Part shown: one piece after another, positions 9,108-47,669 of the stretch | Numbering within the stretch: the stretch's first letter is position 1 | Layout: every line of letters starts with the position of its first letter | From: Escherichia coli | GTDB taxonomy: Bacteria; Pseudomonadota; Gammaproteobacteria; Enterobacterales; Enterobacteriaceae | DNA length: 64,000 nt | Assembly: GCA_025336685.1 (NCBI GenBank) | Contig: GCA_025336685.1_4717.1 | Reading direction: 5' to 3' (one strand) | The notes under the pieces: model-generated | The model's input: the letters and a program-made list of their open reading frames with translations, nothing else | Told to the model about the DNA's origin: nothing | Database searches by the model: none | Position numbers and translations under genes: made by a program

Positions 9108-10214
9108 CATTCTGTTCAGATAAGGTCGTTAATCTTATCCCGTTAAAATAACAGCTGTAGATTATCTCTACAGTTCGGACTATATCACGATCTCCTTCCC
9201 TGGAGACCCCTCCCGTTTCACACCCACTTGGGCGTTACGCTACTCATCACTATTTTTATTCATCCGTTTAGTGCTTTCGCTAGTCTCTGGGCATTCTTCT
9301 ACAAGTCTGTACGATTCAAATTTGGGATTTTTACTACCTAATCGATAAAGTATCGTTGCCGGAACAACACCTAACTGCCGAGCCGCCTCAGTTAAAGAGA
9401 CATACTGAATTCCGTCGATTTCCACTTTACGTGCTGTAGTGGGAATCTTCCCCTTATTCACTTCGGCAAGACGACGTCGCGTCTCTTCTGTATGGTGTCG
9501 CCCATAGAACGAATTCTTTTCCCCGGTTCGGGTTTTTGCAAACTCTGATATCTTTCGACGAGTTTCTTCGCCAACCTTTACACCTAGGCGTCTAGCCCTA
9601 GACGCCGCGATGTTTTCGGGAGTGCATACTTTTCGCCGAATGAGTTCACGTGTTTCCGGTGTATGTGTTCGACCATACATCCCGTTACGTTCGCCCGGAT
9701 TGCCATGAACAGCGCGCCTTTGTTCAGGCGACATCGAAGCGAATCGATCGTTAACGACTTTAGTTATTTTCTCGATTATGTCATCGCGACGTGGGTTTCT
9801 CGATAAATTATCACCGCCTAAAGCACCTTTCCCGATATTGAGAGATGCTTCTTCCGGGATGCTATCGATATACACCTGCTCTAAAGCGTATGCCTCTTCT
9901 CGGGTACTACATTCATCGATATCCACGGTGATAAATCCACCACGGTTATGGATATCTTGTAATTTAGCGTTGTGGTGAGAACCATTACGCAAAGCCGATC
10001 TGTGCGTAGCTAACCGCTGATTAATGTTCCCGGTGCTACCAACATAGACATCGCCGTCTTGAGTACATAACCGATATACTACTGGTTTTTTCATACTGCC
10101 TCCTTTAAAAGAGAGACAGACTTGTAGAAGGTTAGCAACGGATTAGCCCGTAGGCTTTCCCGTTTTAAGGAGGTTATTCGACGTAGCTCACGCTACGAAG
10201 GCGCAGTTGCGTTT
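9108..10214 (-). other. group I intron (1107 nt) in thyA
   Basis: Exon 1 ends in U, intron ends in G (..CUGAACAGAAUG); P-like UUAAAACGGGAAAGCC, Q-like AAUCCGUUGC, R-like CCCAGAGACUAGCGAAAG, S-like GUGAUAUAGUCCG; last ~35 nt closely resemble the T4 td intron 3' end as I recall it. Confidence 0.8.
9240..10094 (-). CDS. GIY-YIG homing endonuclease encoded inside the thyA intron
   Basis: N-terminus VVYRLCTQDGDVYVGSTGNINQRLATH (GIY-YIG), repeated NUMOD-like GxxNxxYGRxHTxETR segments, C-terminal HTH-like region; ATG 10094 preceded by AGGAGG. Confidence 0.85.
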   Translation of the reverse strand: MKKPVVYRLCTQDGDVYVGSTGNINQRLATHRSALRNGSHHNAKLQDIHNRGGFITVDIDECSTREEAYALEQVYIDSIPEEASLNIGKGALGGDNLSRNPRRDDIIEKITKVVNDRFASMSPEQRRAVHGNPGERNGMYGRTHTPETRELIRRKVCTPENIAASRARRLGVKVGEETRRKISEFAKTRTGEKNSFYGRHHTEETRRRLAEVNKGKIPTTARKVEIDGIQYVSLTEAARQLGVVPATILYRLGSKNPKFESYRLVEECPETSESTKRMNKNSDE

Positions 10215-10937
10215 ACGCTGGTAAAGCTGACAGGATAAAGCACGTGTTGGTACGTTATGCGCATTCAACCAAAGTTCTGTTTCACTGCGTCGTACATCAT
10301 CCGTAACCCACTGGGTTCTTAATACGTCGTTGCGCTGGACATAATCAACGCGTTCATCGAGTGTGAGTTCGTGGGTATAGAACTGATAGAATGAATGGCA
10401 CGGAGCGAGATGCATATCGTCTAAATCACCTACGTTCCATGCGCTAACGATGATCCGTCGAGAATCAGGATCTTCTTTAAGCTGACGCATCACGTTTGCA
10501 ATCTGATCGTGATGTCTAACATACACGAGGTGTTTTAGCATACCGTCATTAAGAATGCCGAAATATTCATAGCCGCGTTGCATCAACTCACGAGTACGTT
10601 CTGTATCGTGCGGAACAACCACTTTATAGTCGATCCATTCCCGCCATTGTTTGCCGTAAATCGGTCCTAGATTCCCTTCTTCGTCAGCCCATTCATTCCA
10701 GATACGAACACCGTTATCTTGAAGATAAGCAACGTTTGTGTCGCCGTTAAGAAACCAGAGCAGTTCGTGGATAACGCTCTTAAGGTGAATCTTCTTGGTG
10801 GTTACCAGCGGAAATCCTTTCTTCAAGTCAAAACGCATCTGACGTCCGAATACGGAACGGGTCCCGGTCCCCGTGCGGTCGGCTTTATCGCGACCGTTAT
10901 CCATGATGTCTTGCAAAAGGTCCAAATACTGTTTCAT
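10215..10937 (-). CDS. thyA: thymidylate synthase, exon 1
   Basis: [31 protein letters not shown]...[32 protein letters not shown]...LSCQLYQR; in-frame read-through into the intron gives KRNCAFVA-stop. Confidence 0.85.
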
Positions 10938-11137
10938 TTTAATCCTCTAAGTGTTTCAAGTAGTTCCTGAAATTTATAACGATATTTAGAATCACTTAAC
11001 GTGTAGCAGCAACCACGTAACACGTTATACGCGTAATCAGCTTGTAAACCACGAACCTTCGGATCCAATGATAGATTCAATGACGCGTCATCAAAAATCC
11101 ACGCTTCAATGTTCTTCTTAGATTCCTTCGTTAACAT
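10934..11137 (-). CDS. hypothetical protein
   Basis: Track start 11146 is GTG; ATG 11137 has GAGGTGA upstream; stop overlaps thyA start. Confidence 0.4.
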
Positions 11138-11268
11138 CGTTTTCACCTCGTCGTAAAAGTAAATAGAGTTTTGTCGAGACGCCCTAATTACTTACAACGT
11201 AGGTTCTCCTGGCTTCAGAGAATTCTTAAAATCCGTTAGTTTTGATAGATAGGATAAGACGGCATAAA

Positions 11269-11289
11269 AGCCTCCCATTACGGGAGGCT
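11269..11289 (-). terminator. hairpin AGCCTCCC/GGGAGGCT followed on the minus strand by UUUUAUGCCG
   Basis: 8-bp stem, then U-rich tract. Confidence 0.5.
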
Positions 11290-11301
11290 CCATCAATCAA
11301 C

Positions 11302-11850
11302 TTACTTCACGAGAACAGTGAATTCGAGAACGTAAATAGTCTCGTCATCCATCGGATTTGTCGTGGTATAACCAACAAAGCAATAACCCATATCCGCGAT
11401 AAAATCGCTAAGTTTATCAACATCGCCTACATTGATACGATCATCAACAGACAGACGACATTTACGGGTTATACCACATCCGCGAGGAACACCGGATAAC
11501 ACGGATAGGAAATGCGCGATCCGGTTATTGGTTGCGAACTGTGCATAATCGCCGTAGCGTTTAAGGTCCTTCATCGCAACCTCGACAGCCATACGACGAC
11601 CAGGCGCTACGTATTCAGTGTACGCATACGCTGCGATCGTACGACGATCTTCAGTCAGGTAAGTATTCCCATCAGGATGGTAGCTCTCGATTGTTCCGTC
11701 TTCATAGGTGACGTTTACAACAGGTGCACCGTACTCGTCGCGACCGAATTCAATCTTGCATTTATCCGAAAGCGGTAGAATCGTACACGGTTTTGCGTTG
11801 TTCTCATCGGGGAGATTATAACCGCTCATCATTTTCAAAAAGATAGACAT
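11302..11850 (-). CDS. hypothetical protein, tandem paralog A
   Basis: MSIFLKMMSGYNLPDENNAKP...TIAAYAYTEY aligns with the adjacent 11937..12470 product; RBS GAGGT. Confidence 0.5.
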   Translation of the reverse strand: MSIFLKMMSGYNLPDENNAKPCTILPLSDKCKIEFGRDEYGAPVVNVTYEDGTIESYHPDGNTYLTEDRRTIAAYAYTEYVAPGRRMAVEVAMKDLKRYGDYAQFATNNRIAHFLSVLSGVPRGCGITRKCRLSVDDRINVGDVDKLSDFIADMGYCFVGYTTTNPMDDETIYVLEFTVLVK

Positions 11851-11936
11851 AATAGAACCTCATGATAATAGATAATAGAAATGATAGATAGTACAACAAA
11901 TTGAGGAGGTATTATCCCACCCCCTCGTAGGGATTA

Positions 11937-12470
11937 CTACTTAACGATCGCGATGATTTTGCCGCTCGCACCGGCGTAATATGCTGTTAATTTACCAGTA
12001 AACAACTCTTGTAAAAGACGATTTACATGACTAACAAAGTTAGGGTTGTCTGATTTTACAAACTCGATATTGCGCGTTTGTTTTATATCACGATCGATTA
12101 AGCGTATTTCCAACAACGCACAAATAAGGCGATCGTCAAGTTTACCACTTGTATCCAACACTTCCCCATACGTCGTAGCACGGACGTCCGCATACATACG
12201 GTCAACATCATCCTTCCCAAAACCACAGGAATAGGCATACGTTGCGATGGTATTACCATTGTCCATCACATAAACGTTACCGCCTGGGTAATCGATAAAT
12301 CGTTGATCCTTATCGCCATGAGCGACGAACTCCAGTGTCGGTCTACCTAGTGAATCACGATTGAATTCGATTGTGGTCAAACGGTCAGGTACCACATGCA
12401 ACGTAAACGGTTTCGCATTGTTACGATCGCTAGTATCACAGTTAGCCATTACTTTTACAATAACACTCAT
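11937..12470 (-). CDS. hypothetical protein, tandem paralog B
   Basis: MSVIVKVMANCDTSDRNNAKP...TIATYAYSCGF; RBS AAGGAA. Confidence 0.5.
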   Translation of the reverse strand: MSVIVKVMANCDTSDRNNAKPFTLHVVPDRLTTIEFNRDSLGRPTLEFVAHGDKDQRFIDYPGGNVYVMDNGNTIATYAYSCGFGKDDVDRMYADVRATTYGEVLDTSGKLDDRLICALLEIRLIDRDIKQTRNIEFVKSDNPNFVSHVNRLLQELFTGKLTAYYAGASGKIIAIVK

Positions 12471-12544
12471 GTTTTATTCCTTAGTAGTCCTAGTAGTAGT
12501 ATTGAGGAATTTCACCTCATTAGATAGTCTATTTTGGTAATGTT

Positions 12545-12844
12545 TTACTGAAACAGGACATTAAATTCGACAAGATACCCATCGGATCTATCACCACGAT
12601 AACGGTTGCAGAAAACGCCGAATTTCATCAAGAACTCACATAACTCTTCGGCTTTGTATAACGGAATACGATTTTCGTCGAACAGAGGGCACTTATGGCT
12701 AACCCGCTCCGACGAATCAACGCAACACAAATAAAGAAGGAACCGAACGATAGCTCGGTTCTTAGTGAAGCTCTCGAATTCACCTGCGGTTCTGAACTCA
12801 TCGAGGAGCTTTGTCGTTTTCTTCAATCGTTCACGATCAAGCAT
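12545..12844 (-). CDS. hypothetical protein
   Basis: 99-aa ORF, RBS GAGG. Confidence 0.45.
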   Translation of the reverse strand: MLDRERLKKTTKLLDEFRTAGEFESFTKNRAIVRFLLYLCCVDSSERVSHKCPLFDENRIPLYKAEELCEFLMKFGVFCNRYRGDRSDGYLVEFNVLFQ

Positions 12845-12866
12845 GTTAACCTCAATACGAACATAA

Positions 12867-12898
12867 CCCTCCTCCTTCCCTGATGGGTTGGAGGAGGG
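12867..12898 (-). terminator. hairpin CCCTCCTCC ... GGAGGAGGG
   Basis: 9-bp stem downstream of the 12908 stop. Confidence 0.45.
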
Positions 12899-12907
12899 AA
12901 TATGCTA

Positions 12908-13222
12908 TTATTCTGCTTTAGGCGATGAACCGTTCTTTTTGAAGTCGGATTCGTATTTCACGTTAGAATCGAGAACCTCACGAACGGTTTTATCCGTACA
13001 ACCACGGGCGATGTATGCATTAAGATCGTCGCGTAATTTACGCATTGTTGTTTTATCCGCATCAGAAACATCTGACTTGGTAAGACGGAACGCAATCGCA
13101 TCACGAATTTTATTCAACATTGCTGGGTTATTACGCTGTTCTGCAAATACCGCTTTGATGAACTTATCGCTATCTTTCGAAGCGATGGCTGCATCAAGAA
13201 TCTCAATATGCTTTTCAGACAT
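12908..13222 (-). CDS. hypothetical protein
   Basis: 104-aa ORF, RBS AAAGGAA. Confidence 0.5.
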   Translation of the reverse strand: MSEKHIEILDAAIASKDSDKFIKAVFAEQRNNPAMLNKIRDAIAFRLTKSDVSDADKTTMRKLRDDLNAYIARGCTDKTVREVLDSNVKYESDFKKNGSSPKAE

Positions 13223-13273
13223 CTTCTTTCCTTTATTAAACGATCATCGTCATATTCATTGCGCAGGGTGCTA

Positions 13274-14599
13274 TCACTTCAGAAGCTTAGACATCGCCAT
13301 GCTTCGCGCTAACGCAACATCATACGCATCCATGATCGCGTCACCGATAGCGGTATGACGGATCAGCGGAATACCCATGTCTGGATACTCTTTGGTGCCT
13401 AAGATGGATACCGGTTTGTCTTGATACGCAGCAATCATCGAACGGATATCCTGAACCTGGTTATAACGACAAACTGGCTTAAAGCCCGCTTTACGGAACC
13501 AATGCTCTAATTGAGGCCAATCTGTTTCACCGCGAGCAAGATAATAGAAGGTATCCTTACCGTAGTATTCAGTCATTTTGTCACGAATACTGTTGACGAA
13601 CGCATTTACTTCGGTGATGGCTTCTTTATAACCCATTGCCTTACAATGTTGAAAACAATAGTCGCGCGCTTCCTTTGGTGCTTTGGTTTGCCACCATTCT
13701 ACTGTTGATTCACTGATACGACCACCGTCAGCGATTTGACCATGAACGTCAGGGAAGATATCTATACGCGGACCGTTAACAATGGATTCTGGATTAGCCA
13801 GATCGAAGAACACGATACCGATTTCCAGCAATACTCCATTCTTTTCCAGACTAAGGTTTTCAACATCTAAACAAAATGCAGGCTTCTCTACCGCTAACGG
13901 CTCGAACGAATGGTTGCTGGTATCCGATTCGGTTTTAAGTTCGACGACAACCGGATCGGTATCCGTAGGTTTCAGTTCTACTACAGCATCATCGAGTCCC
14001 GATAACGAAAAATAGTCTTCGAAGAAATCGGGTATCGTCATGCCATGCAAATTGATATCGCAATCTTCCAACCATTGCTTCAACTGGTGCTCACCGGCAT
14101 GAATCGCTAAACGACATGGTCCGGAACGATCATCTAGCGCTGCATCGATCCAGAAGAAAGCGCGTATAAGTAAGTAAGGATTGTACTCCGCGATGATTTC
14201 TTGGCTAGCCGAGAAATCGTACACCATTAGTTGTGTTATTCCCTTACGAGTGTTATACGGATCAACTTTCAATCGACGCACTATTTCTTCTACGAATTCC
14301 AACGCACGCGTGTACGATGTGGACCCACCTTGTTCATACGAACATATACCCGTCAAAAGTTCCTTATAGGACGCATATGGAACCATAGGCGATAATTTGT
14401 ACGACAGTTCAGTATTGTAATTATCGCATAATTTCTTCGGGGCGATAGCATCCTGTATCGCTGTAATAAACGCCGGTCCATCAATATCAAACAACCATCC
14501 TTGACGCCGGTATGCAGTGTATCGTAATAACGCACCGATAACTGCCTGGGGCGGTGTATATTCTTTTCCGTTAATTTCAAACAGTAGTTTGCTCATCAT
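13274..14599 (-). CDS. protein with C-terminal DnaQ-like (DEDDh) 3'-5' exonuclease domain
   Basis: FCLDVENLS (Exo I D-x-E), later HTAIGDAIMDAYDVAL (Exo III H-x-A-x-x-D-A); N-terminal ~230 aa unassigned. Confidence 0.6.
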   Translation of the reverse strand: MMSKLLFEINGKEYTPPQAVIGALLRYTAYRRQGWLFDIDGPAFITAIQDAIAPKKLCDNYNTELSYKLSPMVPYASYKELLTGICSYEQGGSTSYTRALEFVEEIVRRLKVDPYNTRKGITQLMVYDFSASQEIIAEYNPYLLIRAFFWIDAALDDRSGPCRLAIHAGEHQLKQWLEDCDINLHGMTIPDFFEDYFSLSGLDDAVVELKPTDTDPVVVELKTESDTSNHSFEPLAVEKPAFCLDVENLSLEKNGVLLEIGIVFFDLANPESIVNGPRIDIFPDVHGQIADGGRISESTVEWWQTKAPKEARDYCFQHCKAMGYKEAITEVNAFVNSIRDKMTEYYGKDTFYYLARGETDWPQLEHWFRKAGFKPVCRYNQVQDIRSMIAAYQDKPVSILGTKEYPDMGIPLIRHTAIGDAIMDAYDVALARSMAMSKLLK

Positions 14600-14611
14600 A
14601 ACACCTTTTCA

Positions 14612-14947
14612 TTATTCTGGTTTATCTGTTGTCAGGCCGAGTCCGGTCAATATCACGTAGTCGTACCAAGCTTTTACTTTCGCTTTCGCTTCATCTAAAC
14701 TATCGGTGTTGATGTGCGGAAACTCATCGTTGATTGGGAAAGGTAAATCACAGTCGTAGCTTGTATAATCCTTCCAACCTTTCCACTCGATAGTTAGAGA
14801 ACCAAAAACGGTCTCAGCAACAACGTGGTTATAGCGACATTCTTCACATGGCGAGCGCTCTTCCGACCAAACAAGCTCATGCTGCGCTAAAAGTTGTTGT
14901 ACGACCGATAATGGTTGCTCTTCATTAAGTTCGATAATGTCTATCAC
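14612..14947 (-). CDS. hypothetical protein
   Basis: 111-aa ORF. Confidence 0.45.
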   Translation of the reverse strand: MIDIIELNEEQPLSVVQQLLAQHELVWSEERSPCEECRYNHVVAETVFGSLTIEWKGWKDYTSYDCDLPFPINDEFPHINTDSLDEAKAKVKAWYDYVILTGLGLTTDKPE

Positions 14948-15540
14948 CGTATACCCTCCTTTTCCTTATCGTAATTACTACACATATTGACAAACGCAGT
15001 ATTATCAGACAGCATGCTAACCATCTGACGGATTGCGTCCAACGGTTCAAGTTTAGGATTGATTGATTCACCGGTCAACGCGCTTATTGCTCGTGTGATC
15101 TCAGCCAAATCAACGTTCGGGTCTTTATCATCAATGATGAGCAGACTCTTCGCTGGTTTCTGACGACGTTTGATGATTAACAAATACGTGACAAGGTTCT
15201 CACGCCAAGCGTCAGAATCCAGATTGCGTATTACGGTTAACGCGCGACGCTCTTCCGCCCATGATGGTTTCTCACGGATAACGGGCATGTAAGATAATTG
15301 CTCAGCAAGCCCTTTCAAACTGACACGGTTGGTGCCACCAGGATGCTCACTAATCCGCAACATCTCGGTTAACAGACGGACATATGCGGTTGTTGTAGAA
15401 ACACCCCGCAGCGGCAGGAACAAATTATGTCCCGGAACCCCATCATGACTCAGCGGTGCGATATACGCCATGAATTGACGGATATCGTCATCGGTCTGTT
15501 CTCCAGCAACGAACTTAAACGCTTCACGTAGAACGCTCAC
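14944..15540 (-). CDS. hypothetical protein
   Basis: 198-aa ORF. Confidence 0.45.
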   Translation of the reverse strand: MSVLREAFKFVAGEQTDDDIRQFMAYIAPLSHDGVPGHNLFLPLRGVSTTTAYVRLLTEMLRISEHPGGTNRVSLKGLAEQLSYMPVIREKPSWAEERRALTVIRNLDSDAWRENLVTYLLIIKRRQKPAKSLLIIDDKDPNVDLAEITRAISALTGESINPKLEPLDAIRQMVSMLSDNTAFVNMCSNYDKEKEGIR

Positions 15541-15826
15541 TACGAAGTCTCCTTAATGTTTCTTTTATATGCAATCTCTTCGGCAAGTACAGACGTTTGT
15601 ATAGATCAATTAACAGATAACGCATAACAGAAGCGACCACCAGGTATTCACCTTCAGCTTCCGAATAACGTATCATGTTAATTGGGTAATTCAAATAAGA
15701 ATAAGAAAAGAGATCATCGTTGGTAAGGTGATGATCTTCAAGATACTGACGAAACAATTTTGCTAAGGCATCGTACTCCATTCCGTAGTAACACAACGAC
15801 ACCTGTCTTGCAGATAGTCGTTTCAT
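15524..15826 (-). CDS. hypothetical protein
   Basis: 100-aa ORF. Confidence 0.4.
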   Translation of the reverse strand: MKRLSARQVSLCYYGMEYDALAKLFRQYLEDHHLTNDDLFSYSYLNYPINMIRYSEAEGEYLVVASVMRYLLIDLYKRLYLPKRLHIKETLRRLRSERST

Positions 15827-16665
15827 GCTGGGTTACCTTTTAGTTTTCCACGTATCATGTCGACAACGCGTGAGGGATCAGAAATAACATTGGCGATAAG
15901 ATGATCGATAGGTAGGTCGAGAACGATTTTCTTCAGCTGGAAAGCCGTATCTTTACGACGCACGCCGTAGAACACGCCATCTTTAAACACAACCTCGTAC
16001 GAAATGGGGAGCTGGCTAATAACCGTGTTAGCGTAATCACCCAACCACATCGACCCCGCCATCAGATGCGCACAAACCGCATGACTAATACGCACATCTT
16101 TGTTCTTCCGGCTAACGTCTTTGGTTTTCGACATGGTAACCAGAAGTTCACCGATCTTACTCAGCATATCGTCGTATACCCCAAAGAACTTAATCAGTTG
16201 TCGGGCACCTAACGATATATACGTTTCTCGCGGTAAGACACAACACACCTGCGGTAACGTTCCAACCCCATAGACACAACTGTAGGGTGATAATGGGAGC
16301 AAATCAGCAACCGCGTTCTTGATGTTGTTATACTCAACGATATCGTTGAACGGCGAAAGCCCTTTCGTAATCGGTTTATCAATCGCCACATCAAACTCCG
16401 CGAACGTCCATGCTGCTTTACGGGGTTCCCCTTTCTTGTACGGTGGGGCCAGTACCGCAACAACACGAAGTCGATATTCGTGTGTATCGCGTAGCTTAAG
16501 TTGGATACCCTCATCGTCGCCTTCACGCACAAGTGAGTAGCGGCTCGCGCAACCATCACAGGCCACCGTTGGTTCGTGTTGACCGTATGCTGCAAGCATT
16601 GGTTTACTAAGATCTTTATCACAGTGTTTACAATGATGATCCTGTTCCTGATAACTGATTTTCAC
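15823..16665 (-). CDS. hypothetical protein with N-terminal zinc-ribbon-like CxxC..CxxC
   Basis: CKHCDKD...CDGCASR near the N-terminus. Confidence 0.5.
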   Translation of the reverse strand: MKISYQEQDHHCKHCDKDLSKPMLAAYGQHEPTVACDGCASRYSLVREGDDEGIQLKLRDTHEYRLRVVAVLAPPYKKGEPRKAAWTFAEFDVAIDKPITKGLSPFNDIVEYNNIKNAVADLLPLSPYSCVYGVGTLPQVCCVLPRETYISLGARQLIKFFGVYDDMLSKIGELLVTMSKTKDVSRKNKDVRISHAVCAHLMAGSMWLGDYANTVISQLPISYEVVFKDGVFYGVRRKDTAFQLKKIVLDLPIDHLIANVISDPSRVVDMIRGKLKGNPA

Positions 16666-16680
16666 ATCAGGGCTCCTTTG

Positions 16681-17903: not shown

Positions 17904-17914
17904 CTTCCTCCATG

Positions 17915-18436: not shown

Positions 18437-18491
18437 TCTTTTCGATTCCTATTAAAAGTGACCGATTTCTGTGGTCAGGATTGCTAATACA

Positions 18492-18926: not shown

Positions 18927-19000
18927 TCTAACGCCTTTGTTGTTTGTTTTCATGTCCTATACGAACACGAAAAACCGTTAATTTTTACCTTGGTTGCGTG

Positions 19001-19288: not shown

Positions 19289-19314
19289 AGCAGGTACCGG
19301 TAACGCGGCATAAA

Positions 19315-37500: not shown

Positions 37501-37501
37501 T

Positions 37502-39088: not shown

Positions 39089-39180
39089 AACAACCTCTTT
39101 TCGCGGTTCCCTGTTGAAACGTCTTCTGTGACGTCTACCACAAAGGTAACATTTATGTCGCCTCTATGACTTTGTTCATA

Positions 39181-39202
39181 GAGGTAATATAAGCGTGAAT
39201 AA
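39181..39202 (-). promoter_or_regulatory. conserved promoter-like motif (TATATTAC core), copy 2
   Basis: Plus strand GAGGTAATATAAGCGTGAATAA, ~95 nt upstream of start 39088; overlaps hairpin CCTCTATGA/TCATAGAGG. Confidence 0.45.
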
Positions 39203-39330
39203 TTTTGGATTCCAGCTGAGTTATCGCTCAGCATGCAAGGCATCCCGCCGAAGCGAGACACCTTGCACTAACGGAAAGTATTCGCGTTACCTTCTGAGTC
39301 TTCGATTCAGAATGCGAAGCTAAAGCATTA

Positions 39331-40119
39331 TTAGAACGCTAAGCCATCAAAGGCTACAGACGGATCATCGTCGTCATTTGCGCTTGGTGCATCCCAACGG
39401 GTATCAGGGGCAGCTGGGGCCGAACGTGATGCGTTAGAGTTACCGTTGTACTGGCCGTTACCAGCATTACGGTTACCGCCGCCGTTATTATTGTTGCGAT
39501 TATAGCTGTTGTTGCCATTACTTACGCTACGGCTCTCACCATCGAAATTGGTTGCGAGGATGCTTGGCAACACAGCACGATGGATGCGTACGAATTCCAA
39601 TGCACAAAGCGGAGAAACAACCCCGATCTGCAACGGTTGCCCAGACTCATCAACCAGAGAGTGGAAACGTGGTGGTTTGAATACGAACTGGATGTTTGGT
39701 TTCTGGTATGCTGTTACAGCGATGTATACCGAACCATCATCATTCTTACCAACCCATGTTGTACTTTCGGTAATCTGTTTCTTCTTACCTGGGTTATTGC
39801 GATCATCAATAACCTTTTCGTTCTTCATCGCAAAGCGTTGACCTGGTTTACCCTTAGCAACCTGCTCAAGGATCGCAAGCAGGTTGTAGAACGCGTATGA
39901 ACTCATGCGTGCCCAAATGCTTTCAGCGCGACCCTGCTGGTCTTTACGACCTGTATAAACCGTGATACGCGGTTGATTCTTAGCAACGCTAATTTTCAGT
40001 GAGGGGACCGAATTGCCACCCTCAACTTTTTCGTCCGCCCACAGTTTCCAGTTGTTGTCGTCGTAAGCCGTAGGAATAATGTTTCCTTGTGGTTTACTAC
40101 CCGAATTCCAATTGCTCAT
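39331..40119 (-). CDS. possible ssDNA-binding protein
   Basis: Globular N-terminal ~190 aa, N/G-rich linker (NGNNSYNRNNNNGGGNRNAGNGQYNGNSN), acidic C-terminal tip DDDDPSVAFDGLAF resembling an SSB tail. Confidence 0.4.
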   Translation of the reverse strand: MSNWNSGSKPQGNIIPTAYDDNNWKLWADEKVEGGNSVPSLKISVAKNQPRITVYTGRKDQQGRAESIWARMSSYAFYNLLAILEQVAKGKPGQRFAMKNEKVIDDRNNPGKKKQITESTTWVGKNDDGSVYIAVTAYQKPNIQFVFKPPRFHSLVDESGQPLQIGVVSPLCALEFVRIHRAVLPSILATNFDGESRSVSNGNNSYNRNNNNGGGNRNAGNGQYNGNSNASRSAPAAPDTRWDAPSANDDDDPSVAFDGLAF

Positions 40120-40192
40120 TTTCAGCCTCGTTACGTAGTGTGCATCAATTTCTGGTTCAGATGATTGTCAATATTAGTTAAAAATTACAGCC

Positions 40193-40990
40193 TCAGCGGA
40201 ACATGTCCAACAGAAAACGTTTTGCGAAGGGGTCGCGTAACTGGTTGACACCAAAGCGTGTACGGTCTTCCGTTGTTAACGGATTCCACTGACTCTGTTT
40301 CGCAAGATCTAACAGCATCCTTTTTATTTTCACCGGTCCGCTGTTAAACTGTACGGCTTGGTCACCGAACGTTCCCAATGTCATCTTTGTAAATGGGAGG
40401 TTCGCAACCTCTGGACGATCCCCACCAGTAAGTTTGGTTGACCACTGATGTTTTCGTTTCAAAGTTCCGGTATGACTCTCTACCAAAATAAGTTCACCAA
40501 AACCGGTTCTTGCCAACAAGTCAGAAACATAGTGCGTGGTGATATACGATGTTTTGGTTATCGTGGGTAATTTACAATCCATCGATTCGATATTAGGGAG
40601 TCGATCTACAGACGCCATCAACCCACGATAAAGTGTAGCGAGTCCTTTTTGTTTTTCGGTATGTGGCTCCTTGTGTATAGCGTGCGGATAAACACGCTTT
40701 ATTGATGCATAGGTTGGCGCATATATCCGCAAACGAATATGGGGAACGAGTTCATTCACCAACTGCCTTAGCTGCAGCAACTCGTTTTGAAAATCCCCCG
40801 TTATCATCGATAATGGTAATTTATGTTGCTCGACGTCTTCAAAGCTTTCAACAAAATTGCGCGCTAAAGTACGCAGGTTGAACAACCAATCCATCGGTGT
40901 TTCTGGCTGTTGCTGTACTGCTGATAATGTTGCTGACGTCCCCACCGATAAAGGATAATCACCTAGCGTGCGGGCGTACATATCGCTCAT
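40193..40990 (-). CDS. hypothetical protein
   Basis: Track start 41026 is TTG; ATG 40990 (MSDMYARTLGDY) preceded by AAGGAG. Confidence 0.45.
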   Translation of the reverse strand: MSDMYARTLGDYPLSVGTSATLSAVQQQPETPMDWLFNLRTLARNFVESFEDVEQHKLPLSMITGDFQNELLQLRQLVNELVPHIRLRIYAPTYASIKRVYPHAIHKEPHTEKQKGLATLYRGLMASVDRLPNIESMDCKLPTITKTSYITTHYVSDLLARTGFGELILVESHTGTLKRKHQWSTKLTGGDRPEVANLPFTKMTLGTFGDQAVQFNSGPVKIKRMLLDLAKQSQWNPLTTEDRTRFGVNQLRDPFAKRFLLDMFR

Positions 40991-41009
40991 ACCCCACAAC
41001 TCCTTCTTA

Positions 41010-42152
41010 TCATGGCAACGTATCAAGCCAAGCAGAAACCTTTAAGGCATCAACGTTCGGGTATTTATTACGGATGCGTTCGACCAACAAACGCTTAACG
41101 TTGTCCTTTGTCAAGTCCCCACCCTTCTCGATAACGTTATTGACAAAACTGTTCTTTAATAGCGACTGGTTGTTCTTGGCATCCGTTTTAATTGACCAGA
41201 CAAAACCTGGATACAAAGAAGGGATAGAACGAAACGTTTTCGCTGCGTCGTCTTCCTTATCGCAGCGTATTCGAATATGATCGCCCTTCTTCAATGGAGC
41301 CAATTCCCGTTCCAACACACGGACAATTTCATCTCCAACAAGACCATGCAGTTTTATCGTCTTGTAGACATCTGCTTTCTTGTTCTCAACAAATTCCCAT
41401 TGGTCGTTAAACGATTCTGTTAACGTATAACGGAGGTACCCCTTTGGACCTTCTTCGCCATGCGACAAGCGACCGAACGAACCGCCAACCATGATACGTC
41501 CTTTCTGGGATTGTAAGTGAATATGTCCGCTCACAATCCATCCCTGGGTCTTCTCCACCATTGCGTTATACGCATCACTGCTATGAACACATGTCGCTTT
41601 TAACGCTTCTGGTGGAAGCTGATATTCGAACGCACCGTGCATCAGAATGAAGTCCGGCGATCCCTTCTCATCAATAAGTCGGTTCACGGCTGACAACGTC
41701 ACATCCGGGTCGTGGCTGTAGTTATCTGGAAGATAAAGTACTTTTAAACCAAAGTCTTCATCAACCATGCAGAGGTCATCGTAATAACGAACTTTCGCTC
41801 CTATCTCCATGACCTCGTTCTGCTCAACGAACCACTGGCTTTGCTTCTGGTCGTGTAAATTGGTACCCTCAAGAAAGATCAATGTAATATCGTGTTTTCT
41901 CGCATACCGTAACAACCAGGTACCCCAAGCACGAACAGCAACCACGTCACTCGTTACAAACGTCGTAATACGATCGAAGACATCACCACTGAACGTAATC
42001 ACGTCAAGCAGCGCAGGATCTTCTTTGGTGATGTAATAACGTAGCTGGTTAATCAGGTTTACTGTTGGTGTTTGACGATGGATAAAGTGAATATCCGACA
42101 AATTGATTCCACGTAATACCCCAGGCGTTTTATTTCGACTGAAGTCTCGCAT
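41010..42152 (-). CDS. calcineurin-like metallophosphoesterase, Mre11/SbcD-like nuclease candidate
   Basis: Motifs LSDIHF, GDVFD, GTNLHD, MHG, SGHIH. Confidence 0.6.
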   Translation of the reverse strand: MRDFSRNKTPGVLRGINLSDIHFIHRQTPTVNLINQLRYYITKEDPALLDVITFSGDVFDRITTFVTSDVVAVRAWGTWLLRYARKHDITLIFLEGTNLHDQKQSQWFVEQNEVMEIGAKVRYYDDLCMVDEDFGLKVLYLPDNYSHDPDVTLSAVNRLIDEKGSPDFILMHGAFEYQLPPEALKATCVHSSDAYNAMVEKTQGWIVSGHIHLQSQKGRIMVGGSFGRLSHGEEGPKGYLRYTLTESFNDQWEFVENKKADVYKTIKLHGLVGDEIVRVLERELAPLKKGDHIRIRCDKEDDAAKTFRSIPSLYPGFVWSIKTDAKNNQSLLKNSFVNNVIEKGGDLTKDNVKRLLVERIRNKYPNVDALKVSAWLDTLP

Positions 42153-42934
42153 CAGAATTCCTCTAAATCGCTGCTGCTAATAGTCCCCGTCGTAGACGAC
42201 ATGTTTCTACTGCTCGCCGACGCTGTTGTTGCGGATGTTCTGGCTAGATTCAATCCATTTAATAACCCGCGCTCTTTTACCGTACGACGCGAACCATCAC
42301 GAACATCGTAAAGAGGTACGTTGTAATGGTCAAAAATCCGAAGCCATTGCACGTAATCAGCAACAACATGGTCTTTGCTTTCATTCGGAGCAAAGCGATC
42401 GAGCTGATGGTCAACATACGCTTTTGCGCTTTCAGGATTGAAGTTATACTGTCGACGTGCTTTATCCACCATCGCGAGGAAACATGTGTTGGGGTCACGA
42501 TTGATGTATGAACGCGTCCGGATAAAGATAGCCGGTACCGTAAACAGAACCTTGTTGTTATTCCCGTCAGTGACAATATTAACGGCACGATGTGGCTGAC
42601 CTGCTATCTTACACCAATCATGGACAATGGTGCTATTACTCAACATCTCCGCGTATTCAGGATCCTGAGAAAACATTCCTGCGAACGGATACAAGAAATG
42701 TTTAACAAACAGCGATTCGGGCAGGATGTTGGGACGCGTCATCTCCTGTAAACCTTTTCGTAGAAGCTCGCTGTTGTCTACCAGCTCCTGCCACATGTCC
42801 GGTCGTGTTTTCGGGATGGACGGATCCTGAGCGCGACGAATGCGTTCTTCTTCATTTACAACCACTACCCCGGCCGGATACCCCAATAAATCCGTTCCTT
42901 CGCTAACGTTGCTGTTAGTTTGGTGCGCCTTCAT
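42152..42934 (-). CDS. hypothetical protein, S/T-rich C-terminus
   Basis: 260-aa ORF. Confidence 0.45.
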   Translation of the reverse strand: MKAHQTNSNVSEGTDLLGYPAGVVVVNEEERIRRAQDPSIPKTRPDMWQELVDNSELLRKGLQEMTRPNILPESLFVKHFLYPFAGMFSQDPEYAEMLSNSTIVHDWCKIAGQPHRAVNIVTDGNNNKVLFTVPAIFIRTRSYINRDPNTCFLAMVDKARRQYNFNPESAKAYVDHQLDRFAPNESKDHVVADYVQWLRIFDHYNVPLYDVRDGSRRTVKERGLLNGLNLARTSATTASASSRNMSSTTGTISSSDLEEF

Positions 42935-43322
42935 TTACTTCCTCCTGCCACTTGACAAAATTACCACGCTCGGATCGCAGAACACCGCCCAAATCGTACG
43001 ATATACCTTTCTCTGTGACAATCCCGCCAATCTGGAGATCGACACGTTCCGTCGTCGGATCGATATACTTGACACGGACTTTCAATTCCACACGATCGTA
43101 ATAACGCATTAAATAATCATACAACATCCGGTATGTCGCATCTTCCAATTTGGGTGCGCTATACTGCGATGTTGCAATGAGGTACGGTAGTGAAACGATG
43201 GAACCTTGATAGCAATACGACTGGGAATGATTCGATATTGCGAAATTGGTCATTAACCCATCCAGCTTTTTTCCCGACGCGGTTAAAAAGCTCGACAGTC
43301 CAGGTAACGGATTCGATGCCAT
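42915..43322 (-). CDS. hypothetical protein
   Basis: 135-aa ORF. Confidence 0.4.
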   Translation of the reverse strand: MASNPLPGLSSFLTASGKKLDGLMTNFAISNHSQSYCYQGSIVSLPYLIATSQYSAPKLEDATYRMLYDYLMRYYDRVELKVRVKYIDPTTERVDLQIGGIVTEKGISYDLGGVLRSERGNFVKWQEEVNEGAPN

Positions 43323-43335
43323 GAGGAACTCCTCT

Positions 43336-43785
43336 TTAAGCGTAATTCATTCCAACCAATCTATCGTAGTTAGGCATATGCCCTAACTTCAGTTCGATAG
43401 GCATGGATACGTTGGTGCGCGGTGCGTAAAATGTTCGCGTATGCATATCGATATACCCACAGTCCAAATAAACAATATCGGACAACTCTGCCGGATGTTT
43501 AGGTGTGGGAATCTTTAGTCGATTATAACACTCGAGCTGCCACCAGGCATGAAAAAAGTTATTGTAAGCGTACGATTTACTGTTGGCAACTTTAAGTCCG
43601 TAGACCACCCATAACGCCGCCATGAAGTTGGTTGCGTTAATTCGCATCGGTTGTTCATTATTGAGCATGTACGTGTAGGTAAACAAGGGCGTGTTACCAT
43701 CACCGAAACGTCCGACCAAGGTATTGTTTGTGCGTTCGACCTCAAAGGAAAAATGCTGGCTGCTATTACCATCAAAATGAATCAT
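43336..43785 (-). CDS. hypothetical protein
   Basis: 149-aa ORF. Confidence 0.45.
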   Translation of the reverse strand: MIHFDGNSSQHFSFEVERTNNTLVGRFGDGNTPLFTYTYMLNNEQPMRINATNFMAALWVVYGLKVANSKSYAYNNFFHAWWQLECYNRLKIPTPKHPAELSDIVYLDCGYIDMHTRTFYAPRTNVSMPIELKLGHMPNYDRLVGMNYA

Positions 43786-43866
43786 TCTGTTCTCCCCAAG
43801 CTTTTCATTTCATAGAGTGGTGGAAATTCGTAGAAAGTTACAAAAATAAAAAGAATGGGTAGTCCC

Positions 43867-43887
43867 TCCCCACCCGAAGGTAGGGAG
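43867..43887 (-). terminator. hairpin CTCCCCACC-CGAA-GGTAGGGAG followed on the minus strand by a U-rich run
   Basis: 9-bp stem with one mismatch; UUCUUUUUAUUUUUG follows. Confidence 0.5.
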
Positions 43888-43902
43888 AGACCACAGATGT
43901 AT

Positions 43903-44367
43903 TTAAACCAATGCTGCGATAACGTCGTTAACATTACGACCACGCAACTCTGCCGCCAAACGAATAACTTCATCCAGGGAACGGTTTGTACGAATCTTAG
44001 CTACTTTCCAATTTTCAGGATACTGTTCGAAGTTAAGTAACCAAGTCATTACCTTTGCTTGTTCCACACCGTTGAGTTTGATTGTCGTGCGTGGATTGGC
44101 TTTGAACCACTTCTTGCTCAGCTGTGCCATACGGCGAACAGGGTAAGCGTAAGCGCGAGTCCAATCTTTGGACAGATTGTCGAGTAACTCACGGTAGCTG
44201 CTATCGTAGTCTTTGTTGATACGACGTAATAACCAGTTGGCGGTCATCTGATAGAGTTTATCATCTTCGCGTAACCGCATCCCTGCTACTGCTAAATAAA
44301 CGATAAGACCTGCACCCATGATGAGAGACAGGATAAACAGAACTTGGGTTTCTTGTGCTAAAGTCAT
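43903..44367 (-). CDS. membrane-anchored protein (N-terminal TM helix)
   Basis: VLFILSLIMGAGLIVYLAVAG hydrophobic segment; promoter-like motif upstream. Confidence 0.45.
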   Translation of the reverse strand: MTLAQETQVLFILSLIMGAGLIVYLAVAGMRLREDDKLYQMTANWLLRRINKDYDSSYRELLDNLSKDWTRAYAYPVRRMAQLSKKWFKANPRTTIKLNGVEQAKVMTWLLNFEQYPENWKVAKIRTNRSLDEVIRLAAELRGRNVNDVIAALV

Positions 44368-44452
44368 TTTACTATCCTCGGATTTCGTTAGGATTTGATT
44401 TCCAATATAAGGACAATGTGATATGCCTTATACAGTCGATTGATGTTGTACA

Positions 44453-44479
44453 TCACTTAAGTAATATAGCCGTGAAAAA
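44453..44479 (-). promoter_or_regulatory. conserved promoter-like motif (TATATTAC core), copy 3
   Basis: Plus strand TCACTTAAGTAATATAGCCGTGAAAAA, ~90 nt upstream of start 44367. Confidence 0.5.
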
Positions 44480-44486
44480 TGTTGGA

Positions 44487-45284
44487 TTAACGTGTTCTCC
44501 TATCACGATGCGTATACGACTGAAGACCGATGTCCATATGCGGTAACGTCAGCGTCTGCCAGATCTGTCGTGCATAGCGATCGAGCGTATGATCGTCAGT
44601 AACACAATCGACCGGTTCGATGAGGTGCGTCGTATACTGGCTTTTCTCGGAGAAAGGTTCTATGTTAGCGGTGTCCCCTAATCCGCTTTTCACCGTGAAG
44701 ACGAGACGAGTAATTATCATCGCCTTATGCTGCTGTTCATTATAGCGAAGGCTACGATATACGGCATAGCTCCCCCCTTTTAAGCTTCGGGTATAACGAA
44801 GGTCGGAGGTCGTCTCGGAAATCTGATACAGCATCCAATCCAACGTATCTCGCCAGTACGCATCATCCACATCAGGAACCGTGATACCATAACGCGTAGG
44901 CAGCAGTTCTAAAAGCAATTTATAAAGTCCTCGACGCAGACCATGCTCTTCTGTTTCAGACAAACCGTGTCCAACGTAACGTGAGATACGCGTACGTAAA
45001 TACGTACGGATGAACATATTTGTCATCAGTGATTTCGCGCTACTACTGGTATCCTCAAAGCGATCAACACTGAAACTCGTTTCAATCGGCTGCCCATTAA
45101 AGTACAATGCGGCAACATACATCGCATTACTGCTATCTCGTTCAATGTTTAAACGCCCGCAGATATTGGCTGCGTCGTTCATGGTAAATTCTAACTTATC
45201 GTGTTCGATACGATAGATAATATCCTCTTGGGTTGCTAAGCTCGCAATGCGACGATAACCCGGAGAAGTGCGTTTTACACCCAT
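44487..45284 (-). CDS. hypothetical protein
   Basis: Track start 45302 is TTG; ATG 45284 (MGVKRTSPGY) with GAGGA RBS. Confidence 0.45.
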   Translation of the reverse strand: MGVKRTSPGYRRIASLATQEDIIYRIEHDKLEFTMNDAANICGRLNIERDSSNAMYVAALYFNGQPIETSFSVDRFEDTSSSAKSLMTNMFIRTYLRTRISRYVGHGLSETEEHGLRRGLYKLLLELLPTRYGITVPDVDDAYWRDTLDWMLYQISETTSDLRYTRSLKGGSYAVYRSLRYNEQQHKAMIITRLVFTVKSGLGDTANIEPFSEKSQYTTHLIEPVDCVTDDHTLDRYARQIWQTLTLPHMDIGLQSYTHRDRRTR

Positions 45285-45325
45285 GATTGTCCTCGTTTTC
45301 AATTTAAGATTACATGCAGCATAAA

Positions 45326-45350
45326 CCCTCCCCGCATAAGGCAGGGAGGG
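45326..45350 (-). terminator. hairpin CCCTCCC ... GGGAGGG followed by UUUAUGCUG
   Basis: 7-bp stem. Confidence 0.45.
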
Positions 45351-45365
45351 TAGCCATTGAATAGA

Positions 45366-46004
45366 TTAACCTAATTTACCACCGGCGATATTGGTGAAAT
45401 CTTCGCCATCAGGAACTTGCAGTAGAATACGTGCCATGTCCCAGTTGGTTAATGTGATTGCTTTATCATCGATACTCAGTTCTGGTAGGTCGAGTTCATG
45501 ATCATCAAACTCGTAGGAAATACTCCACGTTTCATCTGTTTTAGGATCCGTCATCAATACACCGTCTGTCACACGCATGTAGTCCGGATGCAGTTCATTA
45601 CTGAACGTACTGAACGGATCGGTGTAACATTCAGCATACCCCTCGATCTGCTGACGCTGTGCCTTCGTACGTAATTCAGGGCACGCCATGATCAGTTGTC
45701 GAGATATGCCGTTTGCAGCACGGAAGTCTTCCACAGTGTTACATGGCATAACCACATCGTCATGGAAGATGTTCTCCGATTGTCTCAACAGCGTCTTACG
45801 GAGTTCAGCATAGTTTATCTGATTGAATGCATCGAACGTTGCTAACGATTCAGCGTAAAAATGCTTTACGTGTTCGCTTGCGCCACCGAGACTATTCATC
45901 AACTTATGGCCGTACTCCATAAAGCTTTTATCGAGACCGGAGGACATTTCTCCGAACCTCAGTGCACGATAACTGTCTCGTCCACCTGTAAATATTTGCG
46001 CCAT
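45366..46004 (-). CDS. hypothetical protein
   Basis: 212-aa ORF; AGGAGG RBS directly after the upstream stop. Confidence 0.5.
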   Translation of the reverse strand: MAQIFTGGRDSYRALRFGEMSSGLDKSFMEYGHKLMNSLGGASEHVKHFYAESLATFDAFNQINYAELRKTLLRQSENIFHDDVVMPCNTVEDFRAANGISRQLIMACPELRTKAQRQQIEGYAECYTDPFSTFSNELHPDYMRVTDGVLMTDPKTDETWSISYEFDDHELDLPELSIDDKAITLTNWDMARILLQVPDGEDFTNIAGGKLG

Positions 46005-46019
46005 TACAGGCGTCCTCCT

Positions 46020-46257
46020 TTAGCAATGGTTGTTAGTTGCTTCTATTTCATCAAGATACGGTTCTACGTCATCGCCCTCCACGAATTCGTTGAACCAACA
46101 GTCAATGGTAGAAATAACCGGTGACTGGTGTTCACATTTCTTAGATACCTTAAAAGGCACGTTATTATCCATCATACCGAGTTCGGGTCGAAAACGCCCG
46201 AAATGTTTCGCAGTCCAAATGTCTGGGACGATATGGTTGTTCATCGCGTCCCCATCG
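46020..46257 (-). CDS. RNA polymerase beta-prime-like N-terminal subunit, exon 2
   Basis: Starts with codons for DGDAMNNHIVPDIW, the continuation of NADF|DGD; ends at stop 46020. Confidence 0.75.
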
Positions 46258-47669
46258 CTTCAGTTTAATTTGGTCGAACGTATTCCAATTTCAATCCATG
46301 CCAATCACCGCCTTTACTAATAGCGGTACTTATCGTAGTCGGATGCACTTTATGTTCTTCAGCAAGGGCGAATCTATCAGGATAGACTTTATGTGTACCA
46401 TCCTCAAACACCACCTTTACTGGGAACCTTTGTAATCCACCAGTTTTTGGTCTAGGCTCTTTAGGAATATATTTACATTCGTTCACATCGCCAGGATAAT
46501 TCCTTGTCCACCATGCTTTCCAACCGTTTCTGGAAAACATCTTATCTCCATGACATAAGCTATGACTTAATGTCGCATAGCTCACTCCCACCATTGTTGC
46601 CGCCATTACGGTACTTTCCATGTGATACTTGTCTCCATCGGGCGATATTAAAACCAACCCGCCGTAAATAACATACGACTTACCGGCATCTTCGGATGTG
46701 AAACCGACAAATTCCATTCCGTGGGTAGCCGCATCGTAATATTTCATCAACGGCCATTGTCGTGTAGTACGGAACCATTTTGAAATCTGGGTGTGTGGGA
46801 TACCGTAACACTTAGCCGCATCGCGCATACTGTAATGTTCGGTTATCTCGCCAGTTCTCAAATCCTTTATCCATACTGTTTTAGCTTTCCAGTTCAAGCC
46901 CGTACGATAGGCATGGTACGTATTTTGGGATTGACTCGTCCATTCAAGATTATCCAAGCGGTTGTTATCTTTAACTCCGTCAAGATGGTTACCTACTAAC
47001 ATTGATCCCTCAGGCAGCATAGGTTTTTCACGAAAGGTGGATAAAACAACATGATGAGCTGCTATATCTCTACCTTCATGTCTGACCCTTACATATCCTA
47101 ATACGTTAGTTTTTCCTACTTCCTCTCCAGTATAGGCATCTATAATGACACCCTCCACAGAAGCGGCAAGTCCGGGATAATCTTTACAATGGTAAAATCC
47201 TGGGAATTTTGTCTCTCTAAGTTTCATCTTCTCTCCGCTATCGGCCAACAGAGAGAAAACGTTCCTCGGAGGCCGACGTTTTCAAATTAAACTACGTTAT
47301 CGACTATATCTTCATCCTCATTGCGAGGAGTCTCCCGTTTGGGTCTGTGTTTAACAGAGCCTACTCTACTCGACATCGCGTCTTTCGATAGTCTGTGAGC
47401 ACACATCTTAACGAACATTCGTGGACTCCTAAACAGGTGAACATTCTTGTTAAGATGCTTCGCTGCGGGTTATTCCCGTCCTACCTCTTTTACCATACCC
47501 AGTTCATTACGCTGGCCCTCATCTATGTCGCCACGATGAGTTGGTGTGTAGTCCGATTACAGAAACTTCCCGTCAATTAGAGAGTTTTAACTATGTTCCT
47601 GTTACCAGAAACCCGACTCCGATGATATCAATAAATCAACGTAAGTTATTGATTTAATTGAAGAAACTG
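46258..47669 (-). other. group I intron (1412 nt) in the RNAP beta-prime-like gene
   Basis: 5' splice after U (GCCGACUU|CAG); candidate IGS GAGUCGG pairs with exon CCGACUU including a U.G wobble; P AAUUGACGGGAAG, Q AAUAACCCGCAGC, R GCUCACAGACUAUCGAAAG, S GAAGAUAUAGUCGA all in the first ~400 nt; 3' end ...CUGAAG with terminal G. Confidence 0.8.
46265..47227 (-). CDS. HNH homing endonuclease encoded in the 3' part of the intron
   Basis: HHVVLSTFREKPMLPEGSMLVGNHLDGVKDNNRLDNLEW (HNH core); track start 47248 is TTG, ATG 47227 has GGAGAG RBS. Confidence 0.8.
   Translation of the reverse strand: MKLRETKFPGFYHCKDYPGLAASVEGVIIDAYTGEEVGKTNVLGYVRVRHEGRDIAAHHVVLSTFREKPMLPEGSMLVGNHLDGVKDNNRLDNLEWTSQSQNTYHAYRTGLNWKAKTVWIKDLRTGEITEHYSMRDAAKCYGIPHTQISKWFRTTRQWPLMKYYDAATHGMEFVGFTSEDAGKSYVIYGGLVLISPDGDKYHMESTVMAATMVGVSYATLSHSLCHGDKMFSRNGWKAWWTRNYPGDVNECKYIPKEPRPKTGGLQRFPVKVVFEDGTHKVYPDRFALAEEHKVHPTTISTAISKGGDWHGLKLEYVRPN

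Follow-up and report, generated by a model that had tools for sequence, protein, structure and literature searches.

The td intron of phage T4, which interrupts the thymidylate synthase gene and codes for the GIY-YIG endonuclease I-TevI, belongs to subgroup IA2 of the group I introns. Homing endonucleases have invaded introns devoid of open reading frames (ORFs) many times (Hausner, Hafez and Edgell 2014, PMC3984707). In phage PhiPA3 the intron coding for the HNH endonuclease gp210 interrupts one of the genes for the virion RNA polymerase (Birkholz et al. 2024, PMC11620839), and in nucleus-forming phages one intron-encoded HNH enzyme that targets RNA polymerase was shown to serve as a weapon during co-infection (PMC11620839). 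Similar introns with highly divergent ORFs have been reported elsewhere, according to the title of a study cited in the same work (PMC11620839). Two group I introns are found in a 64,000-nucleotide (nt) stretch of DNA filed under Escherichia coli (GenBank assembly GCA_025336685.1, contig GCA_025336685.1_4717.1), called here the window. The first (intron A, 9108..10214, 1107 nt) splits a td gene and carries a GIY-YIG ORF, the second (intron B, 46258..47669, 1412 nt) splits the gene of an RNA polymerase beta'-like subunit and carries an HNH ORF; the features of both loci lie on the minus strand. Very probably they are mobile elements of the IA type with P7.1/P7.2 that were acquired separately, each equipped with an exchangeable endonuclease module. 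This reading is based on sequence, helices, covariation and the states found in related genomes, from which splicing, nuclease activity and homing are predicted.

The window is collinear with positions 123509-186180 of Escherichia phage vB_EcoM_Goslar, at 92-96% nucleotide identity, and its source is taken to be an E. coli jumbo phage of the Goslar-like, nucleus-forming kind. The window sequence itself has no entry in the phage collection searched. Goslar counterparts are present for the thymidylate synthase, the nuclear shell protein (49018..50913) and the adjoining RNA polymerase beta'-like subunit.

An earlier, sequence-only reading of the window had proposed a single intron lineage in this genome, given the similarity of the R and S elements of the two introns. 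The four R and S strings it quoted do occur, each exactly once and on the minus strand: R (J6/7, the P7 5' strand and CGAAAG) at 9274..9291 and S (J8/7 and the P7 3' strand) at 9176..9188 in the td intron, R at 47382..47400 and S at 47300..47313 in the RNA polymerase intron. The single lineage is not supported by comparison of the complete cores. Thirteen phage group I intron cores were compared after removal of their ORFs, each local-alignment score being converted to a z-score against 200 dinucleotide shuffles. The two window introns reach z=2.5, among the weakest pairs in the panel (3/200 shuffles attain the observed score), and blastn (word size 7) finds no high-scoring segment pair between them outside R and S, even at E<=10. 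The td core scores 16.0 with that of the IMG/VR contig L009 (223 kb), 14.9 with Erwinia phage AH06, 11.8 with the DNA-polymerase intron of contig L007, 9.7 with T4 td and 7.3 with T4 nrdB. The RNA polymerase core scores 75 with Goslar, 66 with the Goslar-like IMG/VR contig L012, 9.2 with the PhiPA3 RNA polymerase intron and 7.3 with the DNA-polymerase intron of contig L008.

The aligned R..S segment is 51% identical between the two window introns, in a panel that ranges from 42 to 72%. Their R elements agree at 15 of 18 positions, a figure that the td R reaches also with AH06, L009 and two DNA-polymerase introns, while S agrees at 9/13, the minimum of the panel (T4 td 11/13, nrdB 12/13). Such agreement in R and S exceeds by far what random sequence would give, but not what other group I introns give, and the AGACUA...GAUAUAGUC portion coincides with the Rfam consensus. 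The resemblance of R and S is explained by their place in P7 and its junctions, the core that binds guanosine throughout the class. The extra CGAAAG marks a subfamily to which DNA-polymerase introns of other phages belong too. RNAalifold applied to the MAFFT alignment of R..S gave P7 only, with the variable hairpins out of register, and a helix table was used instead.

Outside this core the P1 loop, P5, P6, the P7.2 loop and the 3' domain all differ between the window introns. The P7.2 loop is AAGU in the td lineage, as in T4 td and nrdB, and different in the RNA polymerase lineage. The td lineage ends with a T4-like P9/P9.2 tail that is missing in the RNA polymerase lineage, whose ORF-less form stops 8 nt past P7. 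The latter lineage has a P5 extension (GAGGGCCAG..UAAU..ACUGGGUA.GGUAAAAG) common to PhiPA3 and L012_rp0; in the td lineage the extension is absent or unrelated, P5 being minimal in the window and longer, with an unrelated sequence, in AH06. No R..S module exists in the window beyond the two known ones, as searched with relaxed Rfam settings, regular expressions and nhmmer (including a profile built without window sequences), and tblastn found no paralogue of either endonuclease there.

Both introns have inserts of the P7.1/P7.2 type, made of two hairpins and a GAGUAG junction: 66 nt in the td intron and 50 nt in the RNA polymerase intron, where the Rfam alignment leaves a 49-nt unaligned insert. 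By these inserts they are assigned to an IA-like subgroup, their kinship being placed at the level of the phage IA class or subfamily only. With such inserts and a common R subtype, the two introns do not fall into unrelated subgroups. DNA-polymerase introns with the same R subtype (AGACUAUCGAAAG...GAGUAGAGUAGG) were also seen in the unrelated IMG/VR contigs L007 (3030..3300) and L008 (1612..1891), one of them followed by an HNH ORF and the other free of ORFs. At 1008 amino acids the polymerase ORF of L007 is of unusual length, and an intein may be present in it as well.

The td intron splits thyA/td at CAGCGT↓AGTGCT (YQR↓SADV; arrows mark splice junctions). Exon 1 (10215..10937) ends with LSCQLYQR (CAGCGU) and exon 2 occupies 8811..9107. 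Joined, they code for a 339-amino-acid protein whose match to Pfam Thymidylat_synt (391 bits) extends over the full profile, and which is collinear with the product of the uninterrupted Goslar td gene. P1 is GCGU/GCGC, 4 bp, and P10 (AGU-GC/GCAACU) lies directly 5' of the P1 guide; the last intron base is G. P2 (CGUAGC/GCUACG, GUGA loop), P3 (CCUCCU/GGGAGG) and P4 follow, with P5 reduced to AGCC-UACG-GGCU. The P6a strands CUUCUACAAGUCUG (10117..10130) and CAGACUUGUAGAAG (9296..9309) pair perfectly over 14 bp and enclose the ORF, the 3' strand being itself part of the coding sequence. P7 (GACUA/UAGUC), P7.1 (CACUA/UAGUG) and P7.2 (GCCC/GGGU, AAGU loop) precede a 3' part with P8, P9, P9.2 and the tail GAACAGAAUG. 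These helices were built by hand and checked against orthologues in an explicit helix table. The minimum-energy fold of an ORF-less construct recovers P2, P3, P4, P5, P6a, P8, P9 and P9.2, and P7 is not found in it because P7 forms a pseudoknot with P3.

The GIY-YIG ORF (9240..10094, 284 amino acids) starts in the P6a loop, and its 3' end spans P6a-3', P6-3', R/P7 and P7.1, R lying within the last 18 codons; the sequence-only reading had likewise placed R inside the 3' end of the ORF. The product is an I-TevI-like homing endonuclease by its matches to GIY-YIG (46.7 bits) and NUMOD3 (51.4 bits). It scores 25.8 bits with I-TevI_DNA-bd, slightly under the cut-off of 27, and its alignment with an I-TevI orthologue shows 29% identity over 252 positions (E=1e-30). 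The ORF's Shine-Dalgarno region (UUUUAAAGGAGG, 10110..10097) is nearly complementary to the P3 5' strand with J3/4 (CCUCCUUAAAA, 10175..10163); a putative switch between ribozyme folding and endonuclease translation is possible.

The YQR↓S site (CAGCGU↓AGU), 21 nt upstream of the T4 td site, is occupied by an intron in four other genomes: Erwinia phages AH06 and RisingSun, the phiKZ-like Pseudomonas phage SL2 and contig L009. The guide sequence is identical in these introns (ACUGCGCC) and the helix plan is common. The helix table lists compensatory changes across the orthologues in P2, P3, P6a, P7 (GACCA/UGGUC in RisingSun), P7.1, P7.2, P8 and P9, and the SL2 intron, whose core is uninterrupted, is recognized by Rfam Intron_gpI with 69.9 bits. 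The ORFs of this lineage vary in type and position. The window, L009 and RisingSun introns have a GIY-YIG ORF in the P6 loop, 35-39% identical, and the same loop of AH06 holds another, non-GIY-YIG ORF that is annotated as HNH and matches in Pfam an I-HmuI-type NUMOD-like domain alone. The closest GIY-YIG protein (43% identical) is that of SL2, but its ORF is placed in the P9.1 loop.

The 3' end of the window td intron has yet another affinity. A 30-nt segment of the P9.2 region (9113..9142) matches exactly the td intron of Mosigvirus, a T4-like phage, and over the terminal 35 nt (9142..9108) identity with T-even td introns is 97%; the L009 and AH06 sister introns differ here. The T-even-identical P9.2 region is found only in the window intron among the YQR↓S td introns; the L009 intron carries a T4 P9. 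The window td intron is a mosaic, which suggests recent exchange with a co-infecting T-even phage.

The Goslar td gene has no intron, and its sequence at the corresponding site stands apart. Within 30 nt on either side of the site (10244..10215 and 9107..9078) the td exons of the window and Goslar agree at 32/60 nt, against about 93% elsewhere. The canonical site CAGCGTAGTGCTGAC... is replaced in Goslar by the recoded allele GCAAGATCACAGGAC..., which encodes CMLLAR↓SQDTVLGT (AGA↓TCA), while the window encodes CQLYQR↓SADVFLGV (CGT↓AGT) and the other carriers, compared at the protein level, that or close variants. The divergence may mean that the window phage received a co-conversion tract from a foreign donor, or else that the intron-less Goslar allele resists cleavage.

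The RNA polymerase intron interrupts the beta' catalytic motif NADF↓DGD. Exon 1 (47670..48925), adjoining the chimallin homologue, ends with KGYNADF (GACUU), and exon 2 (46020..46257) starts with DGDAMNNHIVP; when they are joined, the match to RNA_pol_Rpb1_2 spans the junction. We take the interrupted gene, by synteny with phiKZ gp54/gp55, to code for the putative non-virion beta' N-terminal subunit. Rfam Intron_gpI (RF00028) finds the intron with 50.3 bits, at a gathering score of 50. The internal guide sequence CAUCG-GAGUCGG (47613..47624) forms P10 with CGAUG of exon 2 and P1 with CCGACUU of exon 1; P1 has a U.G pair at the splice site and the intron ends in G. P1 and P10 covary with synonymous exon changes in Goslar (exon 2 CGACG, guide CGUCG), L012 (exon 1 CAGAUUU, guide GGAUCUG) and L017, a 256-kb contig of a more distant chimallivirus (exon 1 CUGACUU, guide GGGUCAG). 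The core (47669..47297) has a 7-bp hairpin in the P1 loop, P2 with a GUAA loop, P3, P4, a P5 extension of about 100 nt, a closed P6a hairpin, P7, P7.1/P7.2 and P8. The P9 strands AGUUUAAUUUG (47283..47293) and CAAAUUAAACU (46262..46272) form a perfect 11-bp stem. The minimum-energy fold of the ORF-less intron recovers P2, P3, P4, P5, P6a, P8 and P9.

The HNH ORF (46265..47227; 320 amino acids from ATG 47227, preceded by GGAG, with an alternative TTG at 47248) is the loop of P9. It thus lies downstream of P7, and its stop codon, within the P9 3' strand, is 7 nt short of the 3' splice site, in agreement with the sequence-only reading. The ribosome-binding site is part of a CUCUCU...GGAGAG hairpin (47255..47225). 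Pfam finds no NUMOD match in the window HNH protein; its Goslar homologue, 29% identical, matches HNH_3 and NUMOD1.

Introns at the NADF↓DGD site are present also in Goslar, L012 and L017. The Goslar core is 97% identical to that of the window over 373 nt; identity breaks off right after GUCGAUAA and restarts at AG↓exon 2, the window HNH cassette (HNH-A) in between being bracketed by its 11-bp stem AGUUUAAUUUG/CAAAUUAAACU and the Goslar cassette (HNH-B) by a 14-bp stem, UUACGUGCACCGAC/GUCGGUGCACGUAA. The L012 intron is empty and runs GUCGAUAA-C-AG↓exon, its end being GUCGAUAACAG↓exon and its junction with exon 2 GTCGATAACAG↓CGACGGTGACGC. In L017 an HNH protein 56% identical to that of the window resides in an intron only about 67% identical, with its own stem UCAACUGAG/CUCAGUUGA. 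The endonuclease tree and the ribozyme tree disagree, and therefore at least one cassette exchange has taken place.

All HNH cassettes share one insertion point, which precedes the 3' splice site by 2-3 nt, and each comes with its own perfect stem of 8-14 bp that becomes P9. The empty ribozyme of L012 and the two or three very different HNH cassettes could, tentatively, be a natural before-and-after series of endonuclease invasion. Since the insertion point adjoins the part of exon 2 that the enzymes are expected to recognise, such a series would fit a model in which an endonuclease, cutting close to its own target, is copied as a stem-bracketed unit into an intron that has no ORF. Independent acquisition or replacement of endonucleases, which the sequence-only reading had deduced from a comparison of the two window introns, thus holds when each intron is compared between genomes and not when the two are compared with one another. 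That endonuclease genes are gained and replaced independently of the ribozyme is well supported by these comparative states, in line with an already established view.

Further introns occur near this site in the relatives. Goslar (L001, ~4592..4934) and L012 (minus strand, ~771..417) have another group I intron, this one without an ORF, 13 nt downstream, after DGDA. It is 355 nt long with P7 GAAUAC/GUAUUC, is unannotated in Goslar and falls under the Rfam threshold used. The window lacks it, 46257..46245 being uninterrupted (CGATGGGGACGCGATGAAC). A third group I intron of L012 (minus strand, ~1533..1169; 365 nt, Rfam 30.3 bits) follows ILKG-Y, 13 nt upstream. The 26 nt encoding YNADFDGDAM are thus interrupted by three introns, with two 13-nt mini-exons, ATAATGCAGATTT and CGACGGTGACGCT, between them.

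In the proposed mechanism the guide of each intron would pair with both exons, through P1, with its U.G pair at the 5' splice site, and through P10. From what is known of group I introns, guanosine would attack at the P1 U.G, and P10 and the terminal G would then direct exon ligation. Intron-less alleles met in mixed infection would be cut on both strands by the GIY-YIG enzyme and nicked by the HNH enzyme, as expected of the I-TevI and I-HmuI types, and repair would copy in the intron together with flanking exon sequence. The endonuclease genes are, in this reading, separate modules, inserted or exchanged repeatedly in each lineage. Translation and ribozyme folding probably compete, because both ORFs overlap ribozyme strands (P6a-3' to P7.1 in the td intron, P9-3' in the RNA polymerase intron); a competition of this kind has been described for T4 introns (PMC3984707).

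Several observations weigh against two separately acquired introns with active endonucleases. Both window introns combine P7.1/P7.2-type inserts with the R subtype AGACUA[GU]CGAAAG followed by GAGUAG, and a neighbour-joining tree of R..S places them with the two DNA-polymerase introns in one broad clade; a common ancestor of the 3' half may have existed at the subfamily level. The same inserts, junction and clade, with the 15/18 agreement in R that includes CGAAAG, would speak for a single intron duplicated or transposed between genes within this genome, whose copies later gained endonucleases of different families, newly or by replacement. Such an origin is very improbable in view of the similarity restricted to R and S, the z-score of 2.5, the S agreement at the panel minimum and the differences in P1 loop, P5, P6, P7.2 loop and 3' domain. 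The R subtype recurs, moreover, in DNA-polymerase introns from unrelated contigs, orthologues of each intron occupy its site in other genera, and Goslar has the RNA polymerase intron without the td intron. A different reconciliation would keep the lineages distinct overall and treat their R..S halves (P7-P7.1-P7.2-P3'-P8) as one module, recombined onto different 5' halves and carried by jumbo-phage td introns, the RNA polymerase intron and some DNA-polymerase introns. The signature CGAAAG + GAGUAG(AGUAG)G is indeed found in both window introns, L009, AH06, Goslar, L007, L008 and L017 and absent from T4 td, nrdB and PhiPA3. The 5' half of the window RNA polymerase intron resembles PhiPA3 and L012_rp0 through its P5 extension, and the td intron is visibly mosaic, with 30 nt of Mosigvirus td P9.2 and, in L009, a T4 P9. 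The signature amounts, however, to about 20 nt of constrained core for which convergence or ancestral retention accounts equally well, and the variable helices within R..S cannot be aligned between td and RNA polymerase introns; a modular origin of this half is rather unlikely.

The remaining points against the reading of two mobile introns concern function. P1 of the td intron is just 4 bp, Rfam at relaxed E-value gives no match to this intron in 8500-11500 or in the whole window, and its assignment is founded on hand-built helices and orthologues. The match of the window HNH protein to HNH_3 is marginal and partial (25.6 bits for a cut-off of 24.8, residues 87-110), and splicing and cleavage in the window phage are predictions. 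The short P1 and the Rfam result would suit a td insertion that is non-functional, either a decayed remnant or a free-standing GIY-YIG gene between td fragments acting as a split protein, and comparable loci appear in several GenBank records as two td coding sequences plus an endonuclease. This is highly improbable: all core helices are present and covary with those of the four orthologues, the boundaries obey the rule of a U before and a G as last base and restore the exact reading frame through an essential motif, and the orthologous SL2 core reaches 69.9 bits. The window intron was presumably missed by Rfam because an 855-nt ORF sits in P6. A split protein is implausible, as the break would fall inside the conserved YQR↓S active-site segment. 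Two separately acquired mobile introns with exchangeable endonucleases thus remain the preferred reading.

The chimallin homologue next to the RNA polymerase gene is a 631-amino-acid ORF (49018..50913). Its reading as a capsid protein was dropped on the Goslar annotation and a Pfam search on a relative, both of which give chimallin, the nuclear shell protein. Other differences from Goslar are scattered along the window. A segment at 7139..7531 (393 nt), with a 132-amino-acid ORF (7140..7538, minus strand), has no Goslar counterpart, the flanking matches being 7 nt apart in Goslar. Two segments are replaced with similarity undetectable, 13894..14607 (714 nt vs 650 nt in Goslar) and 6165..6519 (355 nt vs 58 nt), and at window position 58334 about 188 nt of Goslar (180320..180507) are missing.

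That endonucleases invade introns independently is textbook knowledge, and the gain made here is useful but incremental. Of the by-products, the comparative series obtained for the RNA polymerase intron is of most use. The states found (empty, HNH-A, HNH-B and GIY-YIG in two loops) could test how cassettes enter and leave, and Goslar-like phages with different cassettes at one site are a ready system for the question of phage competition. Database annotation is also corrected, such interrupted genes having been deposited as split or 'hypothetical' coding sequences.

A close described relative of the td intron is that of T4 with I-TevI. Both reside in the same host gene and have a GIY-YIG/NUMOD3/helix-turn-helix ORF in the P6 loop whose 3' end runs into the core, a P7.2 AAGU loop and a P9/P9.2 tail ending with GAACA-AAUG; the 3' 87 nt are 75% identical (E ~1e-11), and the 97% identity of the terminal 35 nt with T-even introns was described above. 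They differ in insertion site, which is FLG↓LP (CTTGGGT↓CTACCG) in T4 and YQR↓S, 21 nt upstream, in the window, and the guide sequence differs because the insertion site differs. The thy intron of Bacillus phage beta22 probably also lies 21 bp from the T4 site. The endonucleases are 29% identical, the sequences of P3, P5, P6a, P7.1 and P8 are different, and the T4 R lacks CGAAAG. The introns at YQR↓S agree with that of the window in site, guide and helix plan, and three of the four have a GIY-YIG ORF, 35-43% identical.

The RNA polymerase intron is matched most closely by the Goslar beta' intron (Intron_gpI, HOV27_gs001; HNH gp186), located in the same gene with the same splice sites. Goslar is unlike the window in its second, ORF-less intron 13 nt downstream, in an HNH protein only 29% identical and in a different P9 stem. 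PhiPA3 gp210 is alike as an HNH ORF in a group I intron at the catalytic aspartates of a chimallivirus RNA polymerase subunit; it belongs to another RNA polymerase gene and another phage genus, and is likened here by its published description. The PhiPA3 intron compared by sequence (L005, gene 065) has the P5 extension alone in common with the window RNA polymerase intron. The pattern seen between the window and Goslar recalls the report of a conserved ribozyme with divergent HNH ORFs, as far as its title describes it, for another gene and another host; here the ORF-less form, that of L012, is found too.

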